The position numbers and the translations under genes were made by a program. Shown one piece after another: positions 7,831-40,470 of a stretch of 40,646 bases of DNA. The notes beneath the pieces are model-generated. The model made no database searches, had not been told where the DNA came from, and saw only the letters and a list, made by a program, of their open reading frames with translations. Every line of letters begins with the position of its first letter. The stretch's first letter is position 1. Origin of the DNA: a virus (lineage: Duplodnaviria > Heunggongvirae > Uroviricota > Caudoviricetes). Where the stretch lies: positions 1-40,646 of the IMG/VR virus record IMGVR_UViG_2675903413_000001; one strand, 5' to 3'.

Positions 7831-8478
7831 TTACCCAAACGTCTCTTCAGGCCACTGAGCCTTAACTACCTTGCCTATGATTCGGCAGCTATGGTCGCAA
7901 TCCAGGGTTCTGTATGCCGGGTTTAAAGGCACCAGGTAACTAACCCCTGCATCCTTCTCATACTTCTTGAACGTTGCCTCTGAATCACCATTTGCAGAAG
8001 CTACGCAGAAATCCCCAGACTCTACCGGCTCGGCAGGGTCTACGAGTATTAGCATACCCTCAGGAAAGCTCGGCCTTACGCCCTGTGGCGCAGTCATAGA
8101 ATGGCCTTTCACCTCAAGCCAGAAAGCTTTTTCGCTGGCTTTTGTGGTCGTTGGGACCCATGCCTTTGCATCGCTGGCTGTGTAGCTTCCCACCTCCGAA
8201 AACGGCCCGGCCTGCACTGAAGAAAATAACGGGTACTCATATTGGCGAAATACGGCGTCTGAATCCTCGCCAAACATTATTTTTGCCGGAGATACGCCGA
8301 GTGCCGCCCCAAGAACCAGCGCGTCATCCGCGCTAACCTTTCTTGTTCCTAACTCGTAGTTACCCAGGCGTGAAGGCGCAGCCCAGCCGCAAAGCTTGGC
8401 CAATTGAGCCTGGCTAAGTCCTTTAGCTTCTCTAAGGGACTTGATCCTTTCCCCGATAATTTCATGCATCGTTTTCAT
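7831..8478 (-). CDS. cI: CI/C2-type prophage repressor (HTH plus LexA-like S24 peptidase domain)
   Basis: 215 aa; N-terminal HTH ([11 protein letters not shown]), C-terminal domain with GDSM and catalytic Lys region typical of autocleaving repressors; divergent from cro. Confidence 0.85.
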
Positions 8479-8489
8479 CCCTTAAATGT

Positions 8490-8556
8490 AACACGCAACG
8501 TGATTGAACTCTGTACACGAATTGAGGTTGACTGTTAATCACAAATTGTGTGTAAT
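8490..8556. promoter_or_regulatory. OR operators with PR promoter (-35 TTGACT 8528..8533, -10 TGTAAT 8551..8556)
   Basis: Palindromes CACGcaaCGTG (8492..8502) and ATCACAaatTGTG (8538..8550) between the divergent repressor and cro. Confidence 0.55.
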
Positions 8557-8586
8557 GGGTGTGTGATTAATGCTAGGGAGACCGCA

Positions 8587-8805
8587 ATGAACAAAATTGC
8601 CCAGCAGCGAAAAAAAATCGGAGTTTCGCAAGCTGTACTAGCTTCGGCAATTGGTTGGGGGCAATCCCGCATCGCCAACTATGAGCTGAATATCCGTACT
8701 CCTGGCCTTAACGATTGCCGAATGATCGTAGAAGGCCTCAGGAAGTTAGGGTGCCAATGTTCTTTGGATGATGTTTTCCCTCCATCCAGTAACAAAGCCG
8801 CCTAA
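8587..8805 (+). CDS. cro: Cro-like HTH regulator (72 aa)
   Basis: ATG 8587 with SD GGGAG; HTH GVSQAVLASAIGWGQSRIANYE; first rightward gene after OR. Confidence 0.7.
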   Translation: MNKIAQQRKKIGVSQAVLASAIGWGQSRIANYELNIRTPGLNDCRMIVEGLRKLGCQCSLDDVFPPSSNKAA

Positions 8806-8813
8806 GCAGTACC

Positions 8814-8858
8814 CGCTCTTTTCAAAATGGACATTCGTCCTACGTCGCTGAAAAGCGA
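8814..8858 (+). promoter_or_regulatory. nutR: nutR: boxA-like CGCTCTTTT (8814..8822) and boxB-like hairpin TCGCTGAAAAGCGA (8845..8858)
   Basis: Located between cro and cII; same architecture as nutL. Confidence 0.55.
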
Positions 8859-8943
8859 GTTCCAATATATCTGACCAACTAAGGCCATATGCGTTTCCAC
8901 GCATACCTTTCAACTAACTATTCACTATTGGAAATATTAAGAA

Positions 8944-9240
8944 ATGACACAAGCAAGTTACAGCAAGCCAACACAGCGAGAAATTGATCGCGCAGAAACA
9001 GATTTACTCATCAACCTGTCAACGCTTACCCAGCGCGGTTTGGCAAAGATGATTGGCTGTCATGAATCGAAGATAAGCAGAACGGACTGGAGATTTATTG
9101 CTTCGGTCTTGTGTGCTTTCGGAATGGCATCAGACATCAGTCCGATTAGCAGGGCTTTTAAGTATGCGCTTGATGAAATCACAAAGAAAAAATCCCCGGC
9201 CGCCACCGAGGATTTTAAGCAAATTGATATGCAATTCTGA
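8944..9240 (+). CDS. cII: CII-type transcriptional activator
   Basis: 98 aa; C-terminus KKKSPAATEDFKQIDMQF matches remembered lambda CII KKRPAATERSEQIQMEF. Confidence 0.8.
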   Translation: MTQASYSKPTQREIDRAETDLLINLSTLTQRGLAKMIGCHESKISRTDWRFIASVLCAFGMASDISPISRAFKYALDEITKKKSPAATEDFKQIDMQF

Positions 9241-9271
9241 GGGAATTACTGGATCAATCCACAGGAGTAAT

Positions 9272-9439
9272 TATGACAAAACGTCGTAAGAAATACCAGG
9301 AAAAAGAAGAGATTCGACACCCTGATTCACCTGAGGGATTAGTGGTAGCCGCAGCAAATAACAGGGCGTTCGCAGAGCGCCTTGTTGGTGTTTACAGACT
9401 AGCCAAAGCAGGAGTGAAACATGGGCGTCGTTAAGTTAG
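9272..9439 (+). CDS. Possible small ORF (55 aa) between cII and O; low confidence
   Basis: Manual translation MTKRRKKYQEKEEIRHPDSPEGLVVAAANKQ...; good SD AGGAG; overlaps start of O-like gene. Confidence 0.2.
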
Positions 9440-10311
9440 CTGATTACAGGCATAACCCTGTACAACATCAGGAGGCATCCAGTATGGGGTATGTCTCTAT
9501 ACACCGCCAGTTTATGGACAGCAGGCTCTATAAGGACTCTCAGGCAGTACATCTTTGGCTTCACTTAATCCTCAAGGCTAATCACGAATCTACTGTCGTC
9601 AATACGGATATCGGTCCGATAACTGTTGATCGCGGTCAGATGATAACTGGACGCCCGTCGCTGGTCAGAGAAACATTCATCCCCGACAACAAAGTTCGGA
9701 GCTTATTACGGACTTTTGAGTCGAAAGGGATGCTTAATATTTGCTCGATGGGGAAGAAATTTAGCCTGTTTACAATCGTTAAATATGACGATTTTCAGGC
9801 AAAAAATTGTCCAACGGTTGTCCAACGGTTGTCCAACGCAAACACCAGTAATGGCGCGGCTCTCAGCGGAGATTGTCCAACGGTTGTCCAACGGTTGTCC
9901 ATAAACAATAATATAAATAATATCTCTAATACTGACGTATTAGAGAGTGCCACAGCAGACAAAAAGTCTGACAAGAAAAAACCTTCCGTCAGCTGTCAGG
10001 ATGTTGTCGATGCTTACCACAAAATCATTCCTGAAGCGCCAAGAATCCGCGCACTGAATGACAAGCGTAAAAACCAGATCCGAACGTTCTGGCGCAAAGC
10101 CGGAGTGATAACCCGCCAGCTTGACGGGCATGGGTTCACGATGCAGGACTGGAGAAATTATTTGAGCTACGTAGGCGAAAATTGCCGATGGATGTTCGAA
10201 GAGCGCCCAAACCATCAGCGCGGAACCGTCTGGCACAAAAAGGGATTTGATTTCCTGCTTAACGATAATACCTACCTGAAAGTTCGTGAGGGTGAACACG
10301 ATGACCGATAA
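9421..10311 (+). CDS. O: Replication initiation protein, lambda O-like replisome organiser with internal origin
   Basis: 296 aa; contains the iteron array; followed by overlapping helicase gene; alternative start at 9484. Confidence 0.7.
   Translation: MGVVKLADYRHNPVQHQEASSMGYVSIHRQFMDSRLYKDSQAVHLWLHLILKANHESTVVNTDIGPITVDRGQMITGRPSLVRETFIPDNKVRSLLRTFESKGMLNICSMGKKFSLFTIVKYDDFQAKNCPTVVQRLSNANTSNGAALSGDCPTVVQRLSINNNINNISNTDVLESATADKKSDKKKPSVSCQDVVDAYHKIIPEAPRIRALNDKRKNQIRTFWRKAGVITRQLDGHGFTMQDWRNYLSYVGENCRWMFEERPNHQRGTVWHKKGFDFLLNDNTYLKVREGEHDDR
9806..9903. repeat. ori: Replication origin iterons: six copies of TTGTCCAACGG in two groups of three
   Basis: aattgtccaacggttgtccaacggttgtccaacgc (9806..9840) and gattgtccaacggttgtccaacggttgtccat (9871..9903), inside the O-like gene as in lambda ori. 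Confidence 0.8.
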
Positions 10312-11737
10312 TTTTTATGCGCCGCCCCATAGCATCGAGGCAGAGCAGGCGGTGATTGGTGGATTGCTTCTGGATGATGACAGCAGTGAGCGCGTCCAGA
10401 AAGTTCTGGCGATGCTGAAGCCTGATTCATTTTACAGCCGACCACACAAAATCCTTTTCGAAGAAATAACCAGAATGCACCGGGAGCAAAAGCCAGTAGA
10501 TGGCCTGACGCTTTTCGATGAACTGGAGCGTAAATCGTTAACGGCGTCTGTTGGCGGTTTTGCTTATATCGCTGAGATCGCAAAGAACACGCCAAGCGCC
10601 GCAAACATCGTTGCCTATGCAATGCAGGTTCGCGAAACCGCAATGGAACGCTACGCCATCAACCGCATGACTGAAGCGACGGAATTGCTCTATTCCCGCA
10701 ACGGAATGACTGCGACGCAGAAGTACGAAGCTATTCAGGCGATTTTCACGCAACTGACAGACCATGCAAAAACCGGATCGCGTCGCGGCCTTCGCTCATT
10801 TGGTGAGGTCATGGAAGACTGGGTTAGCGACCTTGAGAAACGATTTGACCCATCAGGCGAACAACGGGGAATGAGCACAGGTATCCCATCGCTGGACAGG
10901 ATGCTGTCACCGAAAGGTCTGGTGAAAGGCTCTCTGTTTGTCATTGGCGCTCGCCCTAAGATGGGGAAAACGACGCTATACAGCCAGATGGCAATCAATT
11001 GCGCAGTGCATGAGAAAAAGCCCGCTTTGATGTTCAGCCTTGAAATGCCAGGTGATCAGATACTGGAAAAACTGGTAGGGCAGAAGTCTGGTGTTAACCC
11101 GAATATTTTTTACCTTCCGGCGACAAATGACGCTGATGACGGCTATCAGGGTGATTACGATGGTGACTTCAACAGGGCGATCGAAACAGCCAATCGCTTG
11201 AGTGAAATCGACCTGCTTTACATCGACGACACGCCGGGATTATCTCTGGCTCAAATCGTCAGCGAAAGCCGTCGAATCAAGCGAGAAAAAGGATGTGTTG
11301 GCATGATTCTGGTCGATTACCTGACACTAATGACTGCTGAGAAGGCCGATCGCAACGACCTTGCTTACGGCATGATCACCAAAGGACTGAAGAACCTTGC
11401 CAAAGAGCTTGATTGCGTTGTTGTGCTTCTGACGCAGCTTAACCGCGCACTGGAAAGCAGAACCAATAAACGCCCATTACCAAGTGACTCACGAGATACA
11501 GGGCAGATTGAACAGGATTGCGATTATTGGGTCGGGATCCATCGTGAAGGCGCTTTTGATGACAGTGTTCCACCTGGTGAAACTGAACTAATCCTTCGTC
11601 TCAATCGTCATGGCAATACCGGCACGGTGTATTGCATTCAGGCAAATGGCGCTATTTATGACACAGACCAACAGTCTGCTGAAATGCGCCGCCGTGAACG
11701 CGAGGAACCGCAGTCCAAGAAGAAAGGAGGATTCTGA
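10301..11737 (+). CDS. DnaB-like replicative helicase (P22 gene 12-like)
   Basis: Walker A GARPKMGKTT; DnaB N-terminal motif SIEAEQAVIGGLL; ATG 10301 with SD GAGG. Confidence 0.85.
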   Translation: MTDNFYAPPHSIEAEQAVIGGLLLDDDSSERVQKVLAMLKPDSFYSRPHKILFEEITRMHREQKPVDGLTLFDELERKSLTASVGGFAYIAEIAKNTPSAANIVAYAMQVRETAMERYAINRMTEATELLYSRNGMTATQKYEAIQAIFTQLTDHAKTGSRRGLRSFGEVMEDWVSDLEKRFDPSGEQRGMSTGIPSLDRMLSPKGLVKGSLFVIGARPKMGKTTLYSQMAINCAVHEKKPALMFSLEMPGDQILEKLVGQKSGVNPNIFYLPATNDADDGYQGDYDGDFNRAIETANRLSEIDLLYIDDTPGLSLAQIVSESRRIKREKGCVGMILVDYLTLMTAEKADRNDLAYGMITKGLKNLAKELDCVVVLLTQLNRALESRTNKRPLPSDSRDTGQIEQDCDYWVGIHREGAFDDSVPPGETELILRLNRHGNTGTVYCIQANGAIYDTDQQSAEMRRREREEPQSKKKGGF

Positions 11738-32906: not shown

Positions 32907-33401
32907 TTATTTTATAGTTTTTATGAATTCTTTATTAAATCCCTTCGCTTCTCCGGGGTATCTTCCAAAGACAATTTTTATAAAAACAGAAAAAATAAAG
33001 ATAGCAACGCTTAACAACAATTGCAGTATCATTGGAACCCAAAGAACTACAGGATCTATATTCATGAAACCAAATATTCTTCCGGCGATCATGGCGAAGT
33101 ACCACACTGTTATCAGTAAACTTAGTGGCATATGAATTACTGATATTACCAATCCAAGAGCATCAGTAATTCTGTTTTCAAATTTTTCAGGGGAAAACTT
33201 TTCTTTAAGGTAATTCAGTGCGCAGGCCTCATTCTCTGGATTTTCAGCATTTTTCCCTATAGCAATAGAAATCTCAGATATCCTTGATTCAATTCTTTTA
33301 CGTTTAATAAAACTAGAAAAAAAGAACCACGCAATCTGCAACCCTATCCCCAGAAATAGAGTTGCGGCAACTAGCACAGCGTAACTCATAGAATCAGACA
33401 C
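32907..33401 (-). CDS. Multi-pass membrane protein in the sieA-equivalent slot (about 165 aa), function unknown
   Basis: Several hydrophobic segments; GTG 33401 with SD AAGGAGG 5 nt upstream (alternative ATG 33389); AT-rich; ORF track start 33617 rejected. Confidence 0.6.
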
Positions 33402-33431
33402 ACCAACCTCCTTAGTTTTACGCAGGATACC

Positions 33432-33797
33432 ATGAAAAAAGTTAACATTGGAAACGTACCAAAGATGCTCGTTCCGCTCTTTGAGAGCGGTACAATTGTG
33501 TTTTGTAGAGACTTTCCAGAATGGCAACGCCTGCATCAAAAACTTGGTGTGGACGTGCAGGACTCGGATGCCAACGGAGCGTCTCATACAATGAGCAGCG
33601 AGAATGGTGTTTTGCATGTGATAGGCGTGTTCAATGGCAAACTATCTACTATTGCCCATGAGTGTGCTCACATGGCATTCGATATCTGCTCAAGGGTAGG
33701 TGTTGATGTTGAACCAGGAAGAGCCAACGAGACTTACTGCTACTTAATGAGCAGGCTTGTTGAGTTCTGCGAGCGACATATCAAAAAGCCGGAGTGA
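33432..33797 (+). CDS. Small protein (121 aa) with HExxH motif (HECAHMAFD), putative zinc metallopeptidase-like
   Basis: ORF track; divergent from the membrane gene. Confidence 0.55.
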
Positions 33798-33810: not shown

Positions 33811-33990
33811 TTACTTTTTGCTGTCTGGAGTTCGCTTATCCAATACCCAGCCATGACCTGGCTTTGTTGTTGGCGGAAGCCTTTCGTTGTCCTTGACGGT
33901 GGCAAAATTGTCTTTCTTACCGCCGCGTGGGCCAACCTCTTGGTATATTCCGCCGTTTTTTCCTGTGTTTTCACCTGGTTTTTTCGCCAT
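33811..33990 (-). CDS. Lys/Gly-rich small protein (59 aa)
   Basis: MAKKPGENTGKNGGIYQEVGPRGGKKDNFATVKDNERLPP...; SD GAGG upstream of ATG 33990; preferred over overlapping ORF 33744..33974. Confidence 0.45.
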   Translation of the reverse strand: MAKKPGENTGKNGGIYQEVGPRGGKKDNFATVKDNERLPPTTKPGHGWVLDKRTPDSKK

Positions 33991-34073
33991 GATATACCTC
34001 AACATACACCCGTTATTGGGCGATTAAATATTGATCTCATTTTATAAGTAGTCAATATGGCCCAGGTAAATGC

Positions 34074-34237: not shown

Positions 34238-36397
34238 ATGACAGATATTACAGCTAATGTGATTGTATCGATGCCTTCGCAACTCTTCACTATGGCTCGT
34301 TCTTTTAAAGCCGTAGCCAATGGCAAAATTTATATCGGAAAAATTGACACTGACCCGGTAAATACTGAAAACCAGATTCAGGTTTATGTAGAGAATGAAG
34401 ACGGATCTCACGTTCCTGTTTCGCAACCAATCATCATTAACGCTGCTGGTTACCCGGTATATAACGGACAGATTGCCAAGTTCGTAACTGTGCAAGGCCA
34501 TTCGATGGCTGTTTATGATGCATACGGTGTGCAGCAGTTCTATTTTCCTAATGTGCTGAAGTATGACCCGGATCAGTTTTCTGCAGAATGGCTTGCCAAG
34601 ATGTCTGCGCCTGATTCTTATGCATTATTTGGTACATTCTCATCAATAGCAGATCTACGAGCATTTACTGCATACTCATCAGTTAAGGAAAATGGAAGAG
34701 TCTATGTTGATTCTTATCACCTTGGAACTGGTTATGGCGGAGGATATTTCCGCTGGAATTCAACCAGCACTGATACTGATGACGGAGGCTATACCATTAA
34801 CCCAACTGGCAATACTGGAACAGGACGCTGGAAGCGAGAGATATCCTCTGCGTATGTCGCAAGGACGGTGAGTCCGTTGGAGTTTGGGGCAAAAATTAAC
34901 GATAGTACCTTCGACTGCGCGCCAGCTATCAATGCTGCGATTTCATATCTAAACCCTTACCTTGATGCCTCATATGACTCACATCAAGGCGGGGATGTTG
35001 TTTTTCCAACTGCTCAATACTTCATTAATGACACTATTTATCTCTCTCCAAATGTAAGGGTAATTGGCACGGGAGGAACGTCTGGCTTTAGATATTCACG
35101 CGCAGGATGCTCAATTATTATTGCTATGACGTCCATGGATGTAAATAAATTGCTTCTAGATACCGCTCCATGGCTATCAGACGGCACTGCAAGATATACA
35201 GTGACAAACAGTGTGGAAAATGGGCTGTATTTGAGTGCTGGATATTATGGACCATATATAGAGAATATTGTTTTATTGGGCCGTCCAGATACGCAGGCGG
35301 GAATTAGAATCTGGAGGACTCCGGATGCCAAACTGATTGGAGTTGCAGTGTATGACTGTAAGGTTAGCTTTTGGATAAGTGGTTCTTGGGGGACTGCGGT
35401 AGAGAATTGCTTTGCACAAGGCGCTAAATATGCAACATTTTTAACACCCCACACTACGGCACTAAACTTGGTAGGAGGATATTATACTGGTAATTTATCG
35501 CAAACATGGGATAAAGGCACGGCACAATGGTTCCACAGATCCGGAGATGTATCAAATAGACCAAATATTGCCTATGTCACCACTTTTCTCTATGCCCACG
35601 ACTGTGTCGACATAAATATGCACGGAGTAACATGGGAGGGGTACAATCGAGATTTCGCCCTCTTTTATAGTGGTAACGTTAATGTTTTCGGAGGTTATAG
35701 TGAGAGTGTAAATGTAGCCGCCAGCGAGACTGGTCACCGAGTTTGGTGTCAGTGCGTGGGGTCAACTATTAATACGTTCGGTGTTTTCTGCAACCATGAT
35801 ATAAAAGATTTTGTTGTTCAATCTGGAAACACACTGTCAAGTGGGGCGGTAGTCAAGACTGATATCTCACAGATCAATGTTCGCGACATGAAGATTGGAT
35901 CACCATTTAAATTGATTACCAAAGATCTTGGCTTCGGGCGTTATGGAATCAAAATAAATTGCGAGCATCCAATTACAGAAAATATAGCTGATACTTTAGC
36001 GCCGTTGAGAGGTTATACAGTCCAATTTAAAGGGCTTCTTGATGTGTACACCATGCGTTCACCTTCAATCGCTCAAGGAGCAAACACATTCGATATACAG
36101 GTAAGCAATTGTGTGGCAGGGGGAGAATACTCATGCAGGCTTCTAATGAAAAATGTGGCTGTAACATTACAGCAAGATTTAAGATTTAATGTTTTGGTGG
36201 GTAATGTTTGCAGCGTTACTGGATATCAAGGCAGAAGCTTAGTTGGAACATCTACCATACCAGCACCATCTGCAAGCTTTAATTCAACAACGGGGGTGTT
36301 GACTCTCACCTTTACCGGAAACTCTGCAAATTACTCACTTAATAGGTTAAAAGTTGTTCCACTGGAGGAGCAGCCGCCATTTACCTACTCGACGTAA
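34238..36397 (+). CDS. Tailspike: conserved P22-family N-terminal head-binding domain fused to a distinct beta-helix receptor-binding domain
   Basis: 719 aa; first ~115 aa ([42 protein letters not shown]...KYDPDQF) match remembered P22/HK620 tailspike N-terminus, remainder diverges. Confidence 0.85.
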
Positions 36398-36408
36398 GCA
36401 CTAATGGG

Positions 36409-36427
36409 CGGCGATGCCGCCCAAATT
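36409..36427. terminator. GC-rich hairpin between convergent tailspike and gtr genes
   Basis: GGGCGGC-gat-GCCGCCC; no strong T-run, so terminator function is tentative. Confidence 0.4.
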
Positions 36428-36430
36428 ACT

Positions 36431-37885
36431 TCAGCACGGGGTGTTGCCTCCTCCTTTTAACCATATTAAAAAGCCATTGTTTTCTTGGTTGAAATATATC
36501 GAATAAGAATTGGTGGATTTTATTGGCTTGGTTATAGATGCACATACATTGGATATTATCTTTTTCTGTTCTTCTCTAGCAAAATTGAATTTTACATTTG
36601 GGATGTCGATTGACTGGGCAGCCATGCTAGACGTCCAATCATATGTTGGAACCAACATTGTAGAGATTAATGGATATGCTTTTACAGTATTTATCGATAA
36701 GGGAGCTATTGGCGCCCTGCCAGAATATACAATGTACGAATTTATATTGTAATCTGAGCTATTTCTGATGTCATTAATTGACAGGTATAAAATTGACTTG
36801 TCATAAATTCTCTGCTCTTTGATAGCAAAGGAAAAGCCATATGAAATTACATATAAAGGTATTGCGATGACAGCGATTGCAAAATATTTTTTATTATTAC
36901 TAATTTCGCTTATGGATATCATGGTGAAAATTAAAGCTGTTAATCCTACAGCCCCCATCATCATTCTCGCTGCAATGGCTGATTCACCGAAAATCGCCAG
37001 CATTCCTATTGGTGATATGGCAACCACGGAAATACAGATTATGATTATCGCGATATTTAAAAACGAAACTCTTGGTTTGGTTGTTGTTACCAGTAACGCT
37101 AAAGTCAATAAATATATTGCCACATAATAGATAGATAGACTTGATTCTAATAAAGTATAAAATCTAACCATTCTTTTTACAAAGTAATCAATAAGTGACG
37201 CATCTAACGATATTGCCTGGTCTCTTGTTCCAGTCATCGGGAAAGCAACCTTTATTATAAAATAATAAAGAATCATGCCAATGGCGAGAGATGCCATTGC
37301 TTTTAAAGCTAAAATAATAACTTCCTTTGCGCAGTCATTAGATTTTTTTAATTTCACAATTAAGTTTACTGCCACAAGAGCTATGTATGAATTTATTGAT
37401 GTCTGATATAAAGCCGCGCTAAAAGCAATGATAATAAAAGATGCAATAAAGTAGATTTTGTCTTCTTTAAGTGCGTAGACAGAAGCAACAACCGCACCAC
37501 AAAGTGAAAGCGTCATTGGCAGGTTATCGTACTGATAGAGCATGTTTTCTATATAAAATGGACTTAGCGCGAAGCCTGACGCGCAAATTAACGCTGCCAC
37601 GCTTGTCGAACCAAGTATGTGACGAGTATAGAAAATTGCTGTCATTGACATTACTGCTACTGATAATACCTGTCCAAATATTCCATAACCAGGTAGCTTG
37701 GATGAGGATATCATTAGCAGATGCATCAGCAAATCTGCTAAAGGCCTTCCGTTTTGAGACCACCCATCAAAACCATTCTGCGCCCTAAAAATATCATCAA
37801 CGTAAAGTTGATTGTTTATGATGAATGGCAAATAAAACAACCCTATTAATATAAATGGGATGTGATAAGTATTATTTTTTTTCAT
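36431..37885 (-). CDS. Serotype-specific O-antigen glucosyltransferase (Gtr type-specific), polytopic membrane protein
   Basis: 484 aa; highly hydrophobic; AT-rich; downstream of gtrA-gtrB. Confidence 0.75.
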
Positions 37886-38801
37886 TTTTAATGCCCTTCA
37901 AAATATACCTAGGACGCTGCTTAACTTCAGTGTAAATTCTGCCGATGTACTCACCAAGAACACCTATCCCTATTAACTGGATTCCGCCCAGAAACAAAAT
38001 AGATACTAACAGTGAAGGATAACCACGTACCGCATTACCGAAAGCCAACGTGTCGATAATCATCCAGGCGCCGTAAAGAAACGACAGGCCGGCGACCATC
38101 AGGCCAATATAAGTCCACATGCGAAGAGGGAAGGTTGAGAAGCTAGTAATGCCCTCAAGTGCCAAGTTCCAGAGCTTCCAGCCATTGAATTTTGAGTCTC
38201 CGGCGACACGCCCAGCGCGAGCATACTCGACAACATCAGTACGCCCTCCAACCCAACTCAGAACGCCCTTCATGAAGAGGTTGCGCTCCGGCAACAGTTT
38301 GATGTTCTCAACCACGGCACGGGACATCAGGCGGAAGTCACCGACGTTCTCCTCGATCTGCGGATTGCTTATTTTGTTATGCAGCTTATAAAACCACTCA
38401 GCGGATTTGCGCTTTAGTCTGCTGTCGGTGGAGCGATCAGAACGCTTAGCCAGGACCATGTCAGCGCCTGCCTGCCACTTCTCGATGAGATAAGGAATGA
38501 CTTCAATCGGGTCCTGCAGGTCAACATCAATCGGGATAACCGCATCACCTGTTGCGTGGTCAAGCCCGGCGAACAGAGCGGGCTCTTTACCGAAATTACG
38601 GGTGAAGGAAAGAGGAACGACAAGCGGATCGGCCACAGCCAGAGCATTAATAATTGACTCCGTAGCGTCTTTGCTGCCGTCATTTATGAAAACAATTTCC
38701 ACTTCATATGACTTCAATTCTTCGAATTCACGTACCGTTTTATAAAAAATTGGTATCGCTTCTTCTTCATTGAAGACAGGAACGACCAGAGATATCTTCA
38801 T
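37872..38801 (-). CDS. gtrB: Bactoprenol glucosyltransferase
   Basis: 309 aa; GT2 motifs ([21 protein letters not shown]) and C-terminal TM segments. Confidence 0.85.
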
Positions 38802-39160
38802 TTCGCATCCCTAAAGACAATGAACTTTGAATAGACGAAACCGCACACCAGGCTGATGGCGGAGAAGGTGACAAGAGTGACAATTGGAGGAAGTGAACAT
38901 CTATCAGCAGCCCATCCAACAGTAGCACTCAGTGTTCCCATGAACCCGACATATAACATGTAGCGCATCGTTGTAGTTGATGCTTTGAATGTGAATTTTG
39001 CATTCGCGAAGAAGCTAAAACTCACAGCCACAACAAAACCTGCGAAGTTTGCCAGAGCCTGATTGGTATGCGCGGCATAGATACATACACCAAAAACCAC
39101 CCAGTGTATAAGGGTGTTCAGCACGCCAATAGAGGTGTACTTTGCAAATAGTTTTAACAT
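38798..39160 (-). CDS. gtrA: Bactoprenol-linked glucose translocase (flippase)
   Basis: 120 aa four-TM protein; matches remembered GtrA sequence. Confidence 0.85.
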
Positions 39161-39312
39161 TTCTTCTATCAGCTAATAATCAAAGGCATGAAGTCTATCA
39201 TCCAAGTCTCAATCGATCGATACTTGCTGTGGTTGATGAGACAACACTGAGACACACAAAGCTTTGCACTGGATTGCAAGGCTTTGTGCTATCCGATGGT
39301 GTTTAAGTTTCC

Positions 39313-40470
39313 TCACTCCACCTTTTCATCAATCCAGTCCGCCCACCACTGCATCATTTCTCTGCGCTTATCGAGATACTGAGCATGGTTGTAAATCCCG
39401 CGCACAGATCCGCCGTTGGCATGTGCAAGTTGCACTTCAATAGCGTCAGCAGGCCATTCGTGCTCGTTCATAATCGTGCTGAATTCATGCCTGAATCCGT
39501 GACCGCTTTCCAGACCCTCATAGCCGATTTGTTTAATCACAAGTAATACCGCGTTCTCGCAGATTGGCTTCTTCTTATCGTTGCGCCCGGCAAAAACAAA
39601 CTCTGATACTGGTTTAGTGATGGAGCTTAGCGTAGTGAGAAGTTCAACCACCTGGTCTGACATAGGAACAACATGAATCTTGCGGCCCTTCATCACACTG
39701 GCGTCGATGGTGATAATCCTGTTTTCAAAATCGACGTTCTTCCATTGCATGGAACGAAGCTCTTTCGTTCTTAGGGCTGTGTAGCGTAAAACTTTGGTCG
39801 CAATGAGCGATACGATGCTTCCTGAAAATGTTGCCAGTGCTTTGTTGAATGCAGGGATCTGGTCTGCTGGAAGAAACGGGAAGTTCTTCTTGCGGTATCC
39901 TTTCATGGCGTCTGCAAGGTCAGGTGCCGGGTTATATTTAGCCCTTCCGGTGACAATAGCGTAACGGAAAACCTCGCCGCATCTTCTGCGTGCTTTGTTG
40001 GCTCGCTCCATTGCACCGCGATCTTCAAATCTGCGGATTACTTCCAACAGTTGCATCGGCTCAATATCCTGAATTTCAAGGCCGCCGATGATGGGTAAAA
40101 TGTCGTCATCAAACATTTTTGCAAGTTCAGTCGCATACCCTACTGACCATACTTGCTTCTTGTGCTCGTACCATTCCTTGTAAATCGCACTAAAGGAATT
40201 GTTGTTAGACGAAGCCTTTTTCGCTTTTACCGGATCGATGCCAACCGAGATGTCTTTCCTCGCGGTCCATGCTTTATCCCTTGCCTCCTGCAAAGTCATA
40301 AGCGGATATTTTCCGACGGTCAGGATTTTCTCCTTACCGTCAATCTTGTAGCGAAGCTGCCATACCTTTTTCCCTGACACAGGGACATAAAGGTACAGGC
40401 CATTACCATCGAGAAGGCGGTATGGTTTTTCTTTCGGCTTTGCTGCTTCAATCTGCTTAACGGTGAGCAT
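39313..40470 (-). CDS. int: Tyrosine integrase (P4 family)
   Basis: N-terminus MLTVKQIEAAKPKEKPYRL typical of P4-type integrases; catalytic region with R...HxxR...Y; alternative GTG start 40506. Confidence 0.85.
   Translation of the reverse strand: MLTVKQIEAAKPKEKPYRLLDGNGLYLYVPVSGKKVWQLRYKIDGKEKILTVGKYPLMTLQEARDKAWTARKDISVGIDPVKAKKASSNNNSFSAIYKEWYEHKKQVWSVGYATELAKMFDDDILPIIGGLEIQDIEPMQLLEVIRRFEDRGAMERANKARRRCGEVFRYAIVTGRAKYNPAPDLADAMKGYRKKNFPFLPADQIPAFNKALATFSGSIVSLIATKVLRYTALRTKELRSMQWKNVDFENRIITIDASVMKGRKIHVVPMSDQVVELLTTLSSITKPVSEFVFAGRNDKKKPICENAVLLVIKQIGYEGLESGHGFRHEFSTIMNEHEWPADAIEVQLAHANGGSVRGIYNHAQYLDKRREMMQWWADWIDEKVE

Follow-up and report, generated by a model that had tools for sequence, protein, structure and literature searches.

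In the established model of gtr operons, the bactoprenol glucosyltransferase GtrB makes undecaprenyl phosphate (Und-P)-glucose from uridine diphosphate (UDP)-glucose, and GtrA is required for its periplasmic use (PMC2909390, PMC2629481). The published types of the third, type-specific protein, GtrC, are at most approximately 40% identical among themselves (PMC2629481); GtrC of phage P22 belongs to family I and adds glucose in a 1-6 linkage onto galactose, generating the O:1 factor (PMC3688519). P22 gtrABC reduces P22 infectivity (PMC3688519), and lysogens of the Lederbergvirus Hf4s, for which O-seroconversion of Escherichia coli 4s has been shown, acquire extra lateral O-unit glycosylation and lose Hf4s adsorption (bioRxiv 10.1101/2021.06.09.447823). 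Here we describe the gtr cassette of a viral DNA stretch of 40,646 nucleotides (nt) (IMG/VR record IMGVR_UViG_2675903413_000001, positions 1 to 40,646; hereafter the window), which is prophage contig CXXP01000013.1 of E. coli assembly GCA_001269265.1 (locus L006). This cassette is very probably a working O-antigen glucosylation operon acting through Und-P-glucose. As such, the P22-like (Lederbergvirus) E. coli prophage would possess a functional gtrABC operon for lysogenic conversion, for which we infer the donor sugar, the acceptor, the expression, and the effect on adsorption.

The cassette comprises exactly three co-oriented open reading frames (ORFs) on the minus strand: gtrA (38798-39160), which encodes a small membrane protein of 120 amino acids (aa) and proposed Und-P-glucose flippase; gtrB (37872-38801), which encodes a 309-aa GT2 bactoprenol (Und-P) glucosyltransferase; and a type-specific gtr in the gtrC position (36431-37885; 484 aa, WP_053270778.1). 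The gtrA stop overlaps the gtrB start by 4 nt and the gtrB stop overlaps the gtrC start by 14 nt, and this gene order with overlapping ORFs is that of an operon. On one side, a tailspike gene (34238-36397, plus strand) is convergent with gtrC; on the other, an integrase gene (39313-40470, minus strand) is co-oriented with the cassette and lies directly upstream of it. The window is a P22-like prophage, and the integrase, the tailspike N-terminus, and nearby segments are 95-96% identical to those of N7, HZ41, CUS-3, Sf6, and HK620. A preliminary description of the window had reported three co-oriented genes for a GtrA-type flippase, a GtrB glucosyltransferase, and a type-specific transferase between tailspike and integrase, and the coordinates, the Pfam domains, and the flanks all agree with it; the minus-strand orientation, the joint mobility with the tailspike receptor-binding domain (RBD), and the non-phase-variable promoter type were absent from that description.

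The first two proteins are near-orthologues of experimentally studied GtrA and GtrB. GtrA matches PF04138 (GtrA_DPMS_TM) over its full length (E = 1.8e-13) and is 98% identical to GtrA of Hf4s and 79% identical to that of P22, while GtrB matches PF00535 (Glycos_transf_2; E = 3.5e-30) and is 93% identical to the Hf4s protein and 88% identical to the P22 protein. Relative to SfI, SfII, SfIV, and SfV, the identities are 91-92% for GtrA (SfI, SfII, and SfV in the family comparison) and 90-93% for GtrB. Residues 2-302 of GtrB match the solved Synechocystis GtrB (PDB 5EKP; E = 3.9e-88) with the DVD (DXD) motif in register, and two hydrophobic segments at the C-terminus correspond to the membrane anchor. 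NCBIfam was uninformative, as none of the three cassette proteins reached its cut-off and GtrA and GtrC had no match of any kind. With identities this high, the established roles of GtrA and GtrB can be transferred with confidence.

The closest systems share this conserved part and differ in the rest. P22 has the same operon order at the same position, with a tailspike convergent with gtrC and then gtrB, gtrA, and int; it also has a homologous core promoter and a GtrC that aligns end to end with the 484-aa protein. In contrast, the window has an integrase and attachment site of the IntS/argW type, and its tailspike RBD is unrelated. Hf4s has the same layout beside a tailspike, and its int-gtrA-gtrB DNA is 91% identical to that of the window, whereas its GtrC is a 410-aa, epsilon34-related protein (E = 1.3 to the 484-aa protein) and its RBD is also unrelated. 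The Sf phages carry an AT-rich type-specific gene downstream of conserved gtrAB, as does the window, but they are not podoviruses with a cassette-adjacent tailspike, and their attP lies between int and gtrA. In the CPS-53/KpLE1 element of E. coli K-12, yfdG-yfdH-yfdI occupies the argW site in the order intS-gtrA-gtrB-gtrC, and gtrAB of this type is 84-87% identical in DNA to the window genes in approximately 2,000 complete E. coli genomes. The third K-12 gene, however, is unrelated in DNA, and the window has a full P22-like virion gene set rather than a remnant.

The third gene encodes a polytopic membrane protein, as the preliminary description had proposed, although its database name is merely "glucosyltransferase domain-containing protein". 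It matches PF14264 (Glucos_trans_II; E = 2.3e-32) and PHROG 4829, and shows 9-11 hydrophobic segments within residues 1-356, followed by a hydrophilic C-terminal part. An AlphaFold model built from an 82-member alignment (predicted local distance difference test score (pLDDT) 93.1, predicted template modelling score (pTM) 0.93) contains approximately 12 long helices and a small C-terminal alpha/beta domain (residues ~384-484). D30, D31, R34, P109, D120, Q161, and Y207 are invariant in this superfamily alignment, and all are present in the 484-aa protein; in the model, D30-D31 lie in a loop right after the first membrane helix. The multi-helix membrane core, the acidic motif in the first extracytoplasmic loop, and the structural likeness to solved GT-C enzymes support the assignment of the third gene product as a GT-C-fold membrane glycosyltransferase of the Glucos_trans_II superfamily, in which D30/D31, in the predicted first periplasmic loop, are the likely catalytic site. 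It differs from the GT-C enzymes ArnT, PglB/AglB/STT3, Pmt, AftA/B, and ALG in sequence (5-14% identity), in the small size of its C-terminal periplasmic domain, and in its putative acceptor, which would be an O-antigen repeat and not lipid A, protein, or arabinan. With its domain, fold, and low guanine-plus-cytosine (GC) content (0.353), the gene has the features of a polytopic, sequence-variable, AT-rich type-specific gtr.

Relatives of this protein at the family level are few. Among 1.84 billion cluster representatives, 972 relatives were found at E <= 1e-3, of which only two exceeded 40% identity, followed by a sharp fall to 30% or less; in a 5.8-billion-protein search, only six homologues were at least 48% identical, and the exact 484-aa protein is present on nine contigs. 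Carriers include the assemblies GCA_001269265.1, GCA_001576135.1, GCA_023967315.1, GCA_958328435.1, GCA_023895615.1, and GCA_042688885.1 and the sequencing runs ERR6160569, SRR19869941, and SRR30604758. Searches of gtrC against 50,697 phage records (tblastn and megablast) returned nothing above 28% identity, with no Shigella phage among the tblastn matches, and megablast and blastn searches of its DNA against 5,426 complete E. coli genomes returned no match. The sole characterised Gtr with significant BLASTP similarity was P22 GtrC (24.8% over 467 aa, E = 3.9e-27), a between-family level of identity, so that the superfamily is shared with P22-type GtrC (Salmonella family I) and the family is not. 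GtrI, GtrII, GtrIV, GtrV, and Hf4s GtrC gave short, non-significant fragments (E = 0.21-3.4), and membership in the Shigella flexneri GtrI/GtrII/GtrIV/GtrV families was rejected for want of recognisable similarity (E > 0.2). Since the best characterised match is 24.8%, compared with approximately 40% between published types, the 484-aa enzyme, as judged by its sequence, is a rare Gtr family without a characterised member, and its acceptor and linkage are not predictable. Thus, deducing the acceptor from likeness to characterised Gtr proteins is impossible, in line with the earlier statement that the specificity cannot be read from the sequence; the BLAST comparison suggested with that statement places the protein outside all characterised families.

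The gtr regulatory region (39161-39312, minus strand) lies between the int stop and the gtrA start. It contains a single GATC (39218-39215, position -58) within a -35-like TCGATC and a -10-like TAGACT (39197-39192), whose P22 counterpart is TACACT; in an alignment with P22, SfII, SfV, and Hf4s, these elements coincide with the core promoter mapped for P22 gtr. The P22 operon contains four GATC sites (-135, -122, -71, and -58), arranged as two pairs that overlap OxyR half-sites, and this arrangement is the signature of Dam/OxyR phase variation (PMC2909390). In the window, the approximately 77-nt P22 segment with GATC1-3 and the OxyR A/B half-sites is missing, as it is in SfII, SfV, and Hf4s, and only GATC4 (-58) is kept, which is the SfII/SfV/Hf4s type of upstream region (the Sf phages have one GATC or none). 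A phase-variable operon of the P22, LT2_I, or PT4_II type was therefore rejected, as just one of the four GATC sites is present. The P22 core promoter with GATC4 alone is uniformly active at 349 Miller units, and a Salmonella gtr operon with a single GATC does not phase vary (PMC2909390). Steady, non-phase-variable expression is thus predicted, by homology, for the window operon. Slippage at an A8 homopolymer (37875-37882, minus strand), just after the gtrC ATG and within the gtrB/gtrC overlap, was also considered as a source of phase variation and was rejected, since the run has a constant length in every copy of the allele and is absent from diverged alleles.

At the other end of the operon, the stop codons of the convergent tailspike gene and gtrC are 33 nt apart, and a GC-rich hairpin (GGGCGGC-gat-GCCGCCC, 36406-36422) without a T-run lies in this gap. 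Homologous junctions between a tailspike and a modification gene each have a hairpin of their own sequence, and P22 has an annotated terminator at the equivalent position; the hairpin is a probable bidirectional terminator. A generic promoter and terminator scan of 36200-39500 gave counts not above those of shuffled sequences and flagged neither the P22-type promoter nor this hairpin. The control region also occurs with other cargo: in locus L019, the first 77 nt of gtrA and approximately 130 nt of its upstream region persist, 86% identical to window 39084-39290, and a 630-aa Acyl_transf_3+SGNH O-acetyltransferase (8198-10518 of that locus) fills the gtr slot behind it.

We propose the following mechanism, whose steps are taken by homology to the established model. 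At the cytoplasmic face of the inner membrane, GtrB would transfer glucose from UDP-glucose onto undecaprenyl phosphate, and GtrA would help carry the resulting Und-P-glucose to the periplasmic face. There, the 484-aa GT-C enzyme would add a glucose side branch from Und-P-glucose to one sugar of the growing O-antigen repeat. The operon would probably be expressed steadily from the prophage by the P22-type core promoter without the Dam/OxyR switch. The altered O-antigen of the lysogen would then be bound and cleaved poorly by its own and related tailspikes, resulting in superinfection exclusion at the level of adsorption and in a serotype change. The gain of a glucosyl branch by the O-antigen has been shown for the relatives P22, the Shigella flexneri serotype-converting Sf phages, and Hf4s.

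The adjacent tailspike (719 aa, WP_053270777.1) provides the link to the receptor. Its residues 1-~120 form a P22/Sf6-type head-binding adaptor (Head_binding, PF09008, E = 1.6e-65; residues 1-129 match Sf6 gp14 and P22 gp9 in the PDB), and residues ~212-719 (nt 34873-36397) form a beta-helix receptor-binding and depolymerase domain, which is the domain order of P22-like tailspikes. The RBD model has a moderate pLDDT of 74.5, and its top Foldseek matches, with probability 1.0, are exclusively phage tailspike depolymerases, namely CBA120 TSP2, Klebsiella K2-2 TSP, Acinetobacter gp49, and WceF. A tblastn search of the RBD against the 50,697 phage records returned no match. The 37 RBD homologues (P0009-P0045) carry at least four different N-terminal adaptor types, namely PF09008, Tail_spike_N (PF18668), the T7 tail-fibre type (PF03906), and an epsilon15 type without a Pfam match.

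The RBD and the cassette move together. A block of approximately 4.2 kb (34873-39061), which covers tailspike residues ~212-719, gtrC, gtrB, and most of gtrA, is 97.6-98.7% identical in loci L001, L003, and L007. These prophages are epsilon15-like, with identities of 83.5% to epsilon15 itself and 90% to Enterobacter phage BUCT554, and no P22 head-binding domain is present in their tailspike. A third phage type, which has a tape-measure protein and is 82% identical to the Enterobacter siphovirus CobraSix, carries a 99% gtrC allele accompanied by a 98% RBD. The pairing extends to diverged members of the subfamily: a metagenome contig (L012; GtrC 57%, adjacent RBD 91%), two sequencing-run contigs (L013, 51% and 58%; L014, 49% and 60%), and Yersinia kristensenii (L011, 48% and 58%). 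The O-antigen clusters of Y. kristensenii O11 and E. coli O98 may be related. In all seven visible contexts of the Gtr subfamily, which span 48-100% identity, E. coli and Y. kristensenii, and at least three phage types, the gtr gene stands tail-to-tail with one RBD family. The suggestion that the modified O-antigen is probably the receptor recognised by the tailspike is thereby supported indirectly, through these contexts and through the loss of self-adsorption in Hf4s lysogens. A strict one-to-one coupling of RBD and Gtr was rejected, as some relatives of the RBD have a Gtr of another family, or an acetyltransferase, as their partner. In sequencing run ERR6160569, a single strain holds two prophages with related RBDs and different Gtr enzymes, one epsilon15-like with the window gtrC allele (L001) and the other a P22-like remnant with a 22%-identical Gtr (L016).

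Because of these linkage data and the experiments on the relatives Hf4s and P22, we favor, as the more probable interpretation of its role, that the main effect of the cassette is to keep the prophage's own tailspike from using the modified O-antigen. Several points weigh against our reading of the operon and its role. In L015, the partner of a 61%-identical RBD is a Gtr with just 22.5% identity to the window protein; a 65%-identical RBD is accompanied by the Acyl_transf_3+SGNH O-acetyltransferase (L019), and the 91%-identical RBD of L012 by a GtrC of 57% identity. GtrC families II and IV of Salmonella produced no detectable lipopolysaccharide change (PMC3688519), which indicates that a position in a gtr operon does not guarantee an effect on the O-antigen. 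The candidate promoter was assigned by homology, and the generic scan did not rise above shuffled sequences. Finally, the putative catalytic role of D30/D31 comes from conservation and model position, not from a residue-level superposition.

Among the alternatives, the one that survives best accepts O-antigen glucosylation and holds that its selected role is protection from unrelated O-antigen-dependent phages or an altered host antigenicity, the tailspike being its neighbour only because both occupy a common insertion hot-spot where the late operon ends. Unrelated cargo, such as another Gtr family or an acetyltransferase, is indeed accommodated downstream of the tailspike, the identities of gtrC and RBD are uncoupled in L012, Hf4s conversion also blocks the unrelated phage DT57C (bioRxiv 10.1101/2021.06.09.447823), and gtr operons are known to move alone between phage types (PMC2629481). 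However, the RBD and the cassette were co-inherited as one 4.2-kb block by phage types that otherwise share nothing nearby, in Yersinia the pairing is still seen at a GtrC identity of 48%, and self-exclusion has been demonstrated experimentally for Hf4s and P22. We therefore regard this alternative as unlikely.

A second alternative is that the cassette is intact but its enzyme acts on another periplasmic glycan (enterobacterial common antigen, capsule, or core) or has no detectable substrate, with no serotype conversion. The gel assays of Salmonella GtrC families II and IV would agree with this, as would the identity of 25% or less between the 484-aa protein and any characterised Gtr and an acceptor that the sequence does not reveal. 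In contrast, the tail-to-tail neighbour of the gene is, in each context that is visible, a beta-helix tailspike of the O-antigen type, its nearest characterised relative, P22 GtrC, acts on the O-antigen (PMC3688519), related RBDs share the slot with an O-antigen-modifying type of O-acetyltransferase, and purifying selection speaks for the existence of a true substrate in these hosts. This alternative is accordingly quite improbable, and O-antigen glucosylation remains our preferred reading.

The type-specific gene very probably has a separate origin from the rest of the cassette. Its GC content of 0.353 contrasts with 0.478 in gtrB, 0.446 in gtrA, 0.474 in int, 0.429 in the tailspike gene, and 0.465 in the whole window, so that the GC drop in the cassette is limited to the third gene, in agreement with the preliminary description. 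The gene also lies between mosaic boundaries: the approximately 91% DNA homology to Hf4s ends at ~37878-37920, in the 3' end of gtrB, where the homology to SfIV and to E. coli yfdGH also ends. Furthermore, the gtrC DNA of the epsilon15-like prophages shows 100.00% identity to that of the P22-like window, compared with differences of 4.1% in gtrB and 1.05% in the RBD. Such a pattern fits a gtrC that was recently replaced through recombination in its conserved flanks, and the separate acquisition proposed earlier is borne out by these data. It is highly improbable that the low GC reflects merely the amino-acid make-up of a hydrophobic protein. Ile, Leu, Phe, Tyr, Asn, and Lys do abound in the protein, and GC at the first and second codon positions is low (0.357 and 0.365), but at the third position, too, GC is low (0.336, compared with 0.529 for gtrB and 0.528 for int), which indicates that the drop is not merely an effect of hydrophobic amino acids, and neither the exact end of the homology at the 3' end of gtrB nor the identity of gtrC between diverged lineages fits such an explanation.

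The cassette genes are intact and under purifying selection. Compared with an allele 98.8% identical in protein (L008), gtrC has 12 synonymous and 6 non-synonymous codon changes and a ratio of non-synonymous to synonymous substitution rates (dN/dS) of 0.16; compared with an allele 77% identical in protein (L010), dN/dS is 0.11, and for gtrB it is 0.05-0.07. These low values indicate purifying selection and, together with the intact gtrC ORF, speak against the pseudogene that had been named as a possible objection. That the cassette is a silent or decaying passenger, unexpressed or non-functional in the window prophage, is hardly tenable, as the loss of gtrA and most of gtrB in the related prophages L016 and L017, the absence of promoter or terminator calls above background in the generic scan, and the A8 run right after the gtrC start codon are set against three intact ORFs with coupled overlaps, an identical 484-aa protein on nine contigs from three phage backgrounds, dN/dS values of 0.05-0.16 for gtrB and gtrC with the invariant motif residues kept, a core promoter homologous to a mapped and intrinsically active P22 promoter, and a run that is equal in length across copies and missing in other alleles. 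The two prophages that lack gtrA and most of gtrB (L016, 9640-10059; L017, 9647-10056) are P22-like and inserted at argW, and they carry an intact 484-aa Gtr of another family beside a 61%-identical tailspike RBD; this orphan Gtr would need gtrAB from elsewhere.

Beyond the operon itself, we tentatively propose that the RBD and the gtr cassette may form one portable recognise-then-mask module for one specific E. coli O-antigen, which may recently have been passed on as a whole between phages of three unrelated virion architectures (P22-like podovirus, epsilon15-like podovirus, and CobraSix-like siphovirus) and in which gtrC may serve as a replaceable cartridge. If gtrC is swapped through recombination in the conserved gtrB on one side and the 3' end of the tailspike gene on the other, its complete identity between flanks that are 1-4% apart would be explained. 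In a further locus, L002, a P22-like prophage carries an identical cassette at the bioA-ybhB site (L002 ~8490-8725 corresponds to window 39161-39396), with an 84-nt remnant of the IntS 3' end at the host junction. This site and this remnant indicate that the cassette has also moved between integration modules.

The integrase of the window is an IntS-type tyrosine recombinase of 385 aa as called, the ORF extending to 40506 from an upstream GTG; it has the Pfam domains Phage_integrase, Phage_int_M, and Arm-DNA-bind_3, and its DNA is approximately 96% identical to int of Sf6, HK620, and HK633. In the sister loci L004 and L005, the order is yfdC-int-gtrA-gtrB-gtrC-tailspike, which is the argW/yfdC site. 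ARAGORN found no attachment tRNA near int in the window, and, going by these two loci, the contig end appears to fall just short of argW. Elsewhere, ARAGORN called a tRNA-Ala (anticodon cgc; 8198-8280, minus strand) inside a 215-aa ORF (7831-8478), which may be a false positive. Upstream of the tailspike, a long ORF (32907-33617, minus strand) encodes a SieA-like superinfection-exclusion protein (PHROG 7745, residues 73-236), and between it and the tailspike lies a 121-aa ORF (33432-33797, plus strand) with an HExxH motif (HECAH), which matches PHROG 1365 (unknown function; E = 1.4e-39) and no Pfam family and is kept in L002, L004, L005, and L019. A small YjzC-like ORF (33811-34005, minus strand; PHROG 3202) follows. 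In contrast to the related prophages L015 and L019, no Arc/Mnt gene lies upstream of the tailspike in the window.

The exchange of gtr between phage types has already been published (PMC2629481), as have the exchange of RBDs between Lederberg- and Uetakeviruses and the location of modification genes behind the receptor-binding protein (PMC10408124), and gtrABC cassettes beside tailspikes and low-GC type-specific genes are likewise known. The present analysis makes a modest addition: a Gtr family without a characterised member, an equally uncharacterised RBD family with which it is consistently paired in three virion types, and signs of a cartridge-like replacement of gtrC. For such an exchange in the conversion slot, a gtrC that is identical while its flanks have diverged offers a clear example from nature. 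Prophage gtr cassettes alter the O-antigen and thereby serotyping results, phage susceptibility, which matters for phage therapy and tailocin design, and antibody recognition. The gtrC allele described here would add an uncharacterised glucosylation to some E. coli O-antigen, and in silico serotyping based on rfb would miss the change. The close pairing with a single RBD family is also of practical use, as the expressed RBD would be a probe for the unmodified receptor, with the Gtr as the matching masking enzyme. If the RBD and the cassette do form a portable module, the 484-aa enzyme would be a new Gtr family making an O-antigen variant outside the present serotyping scheme.

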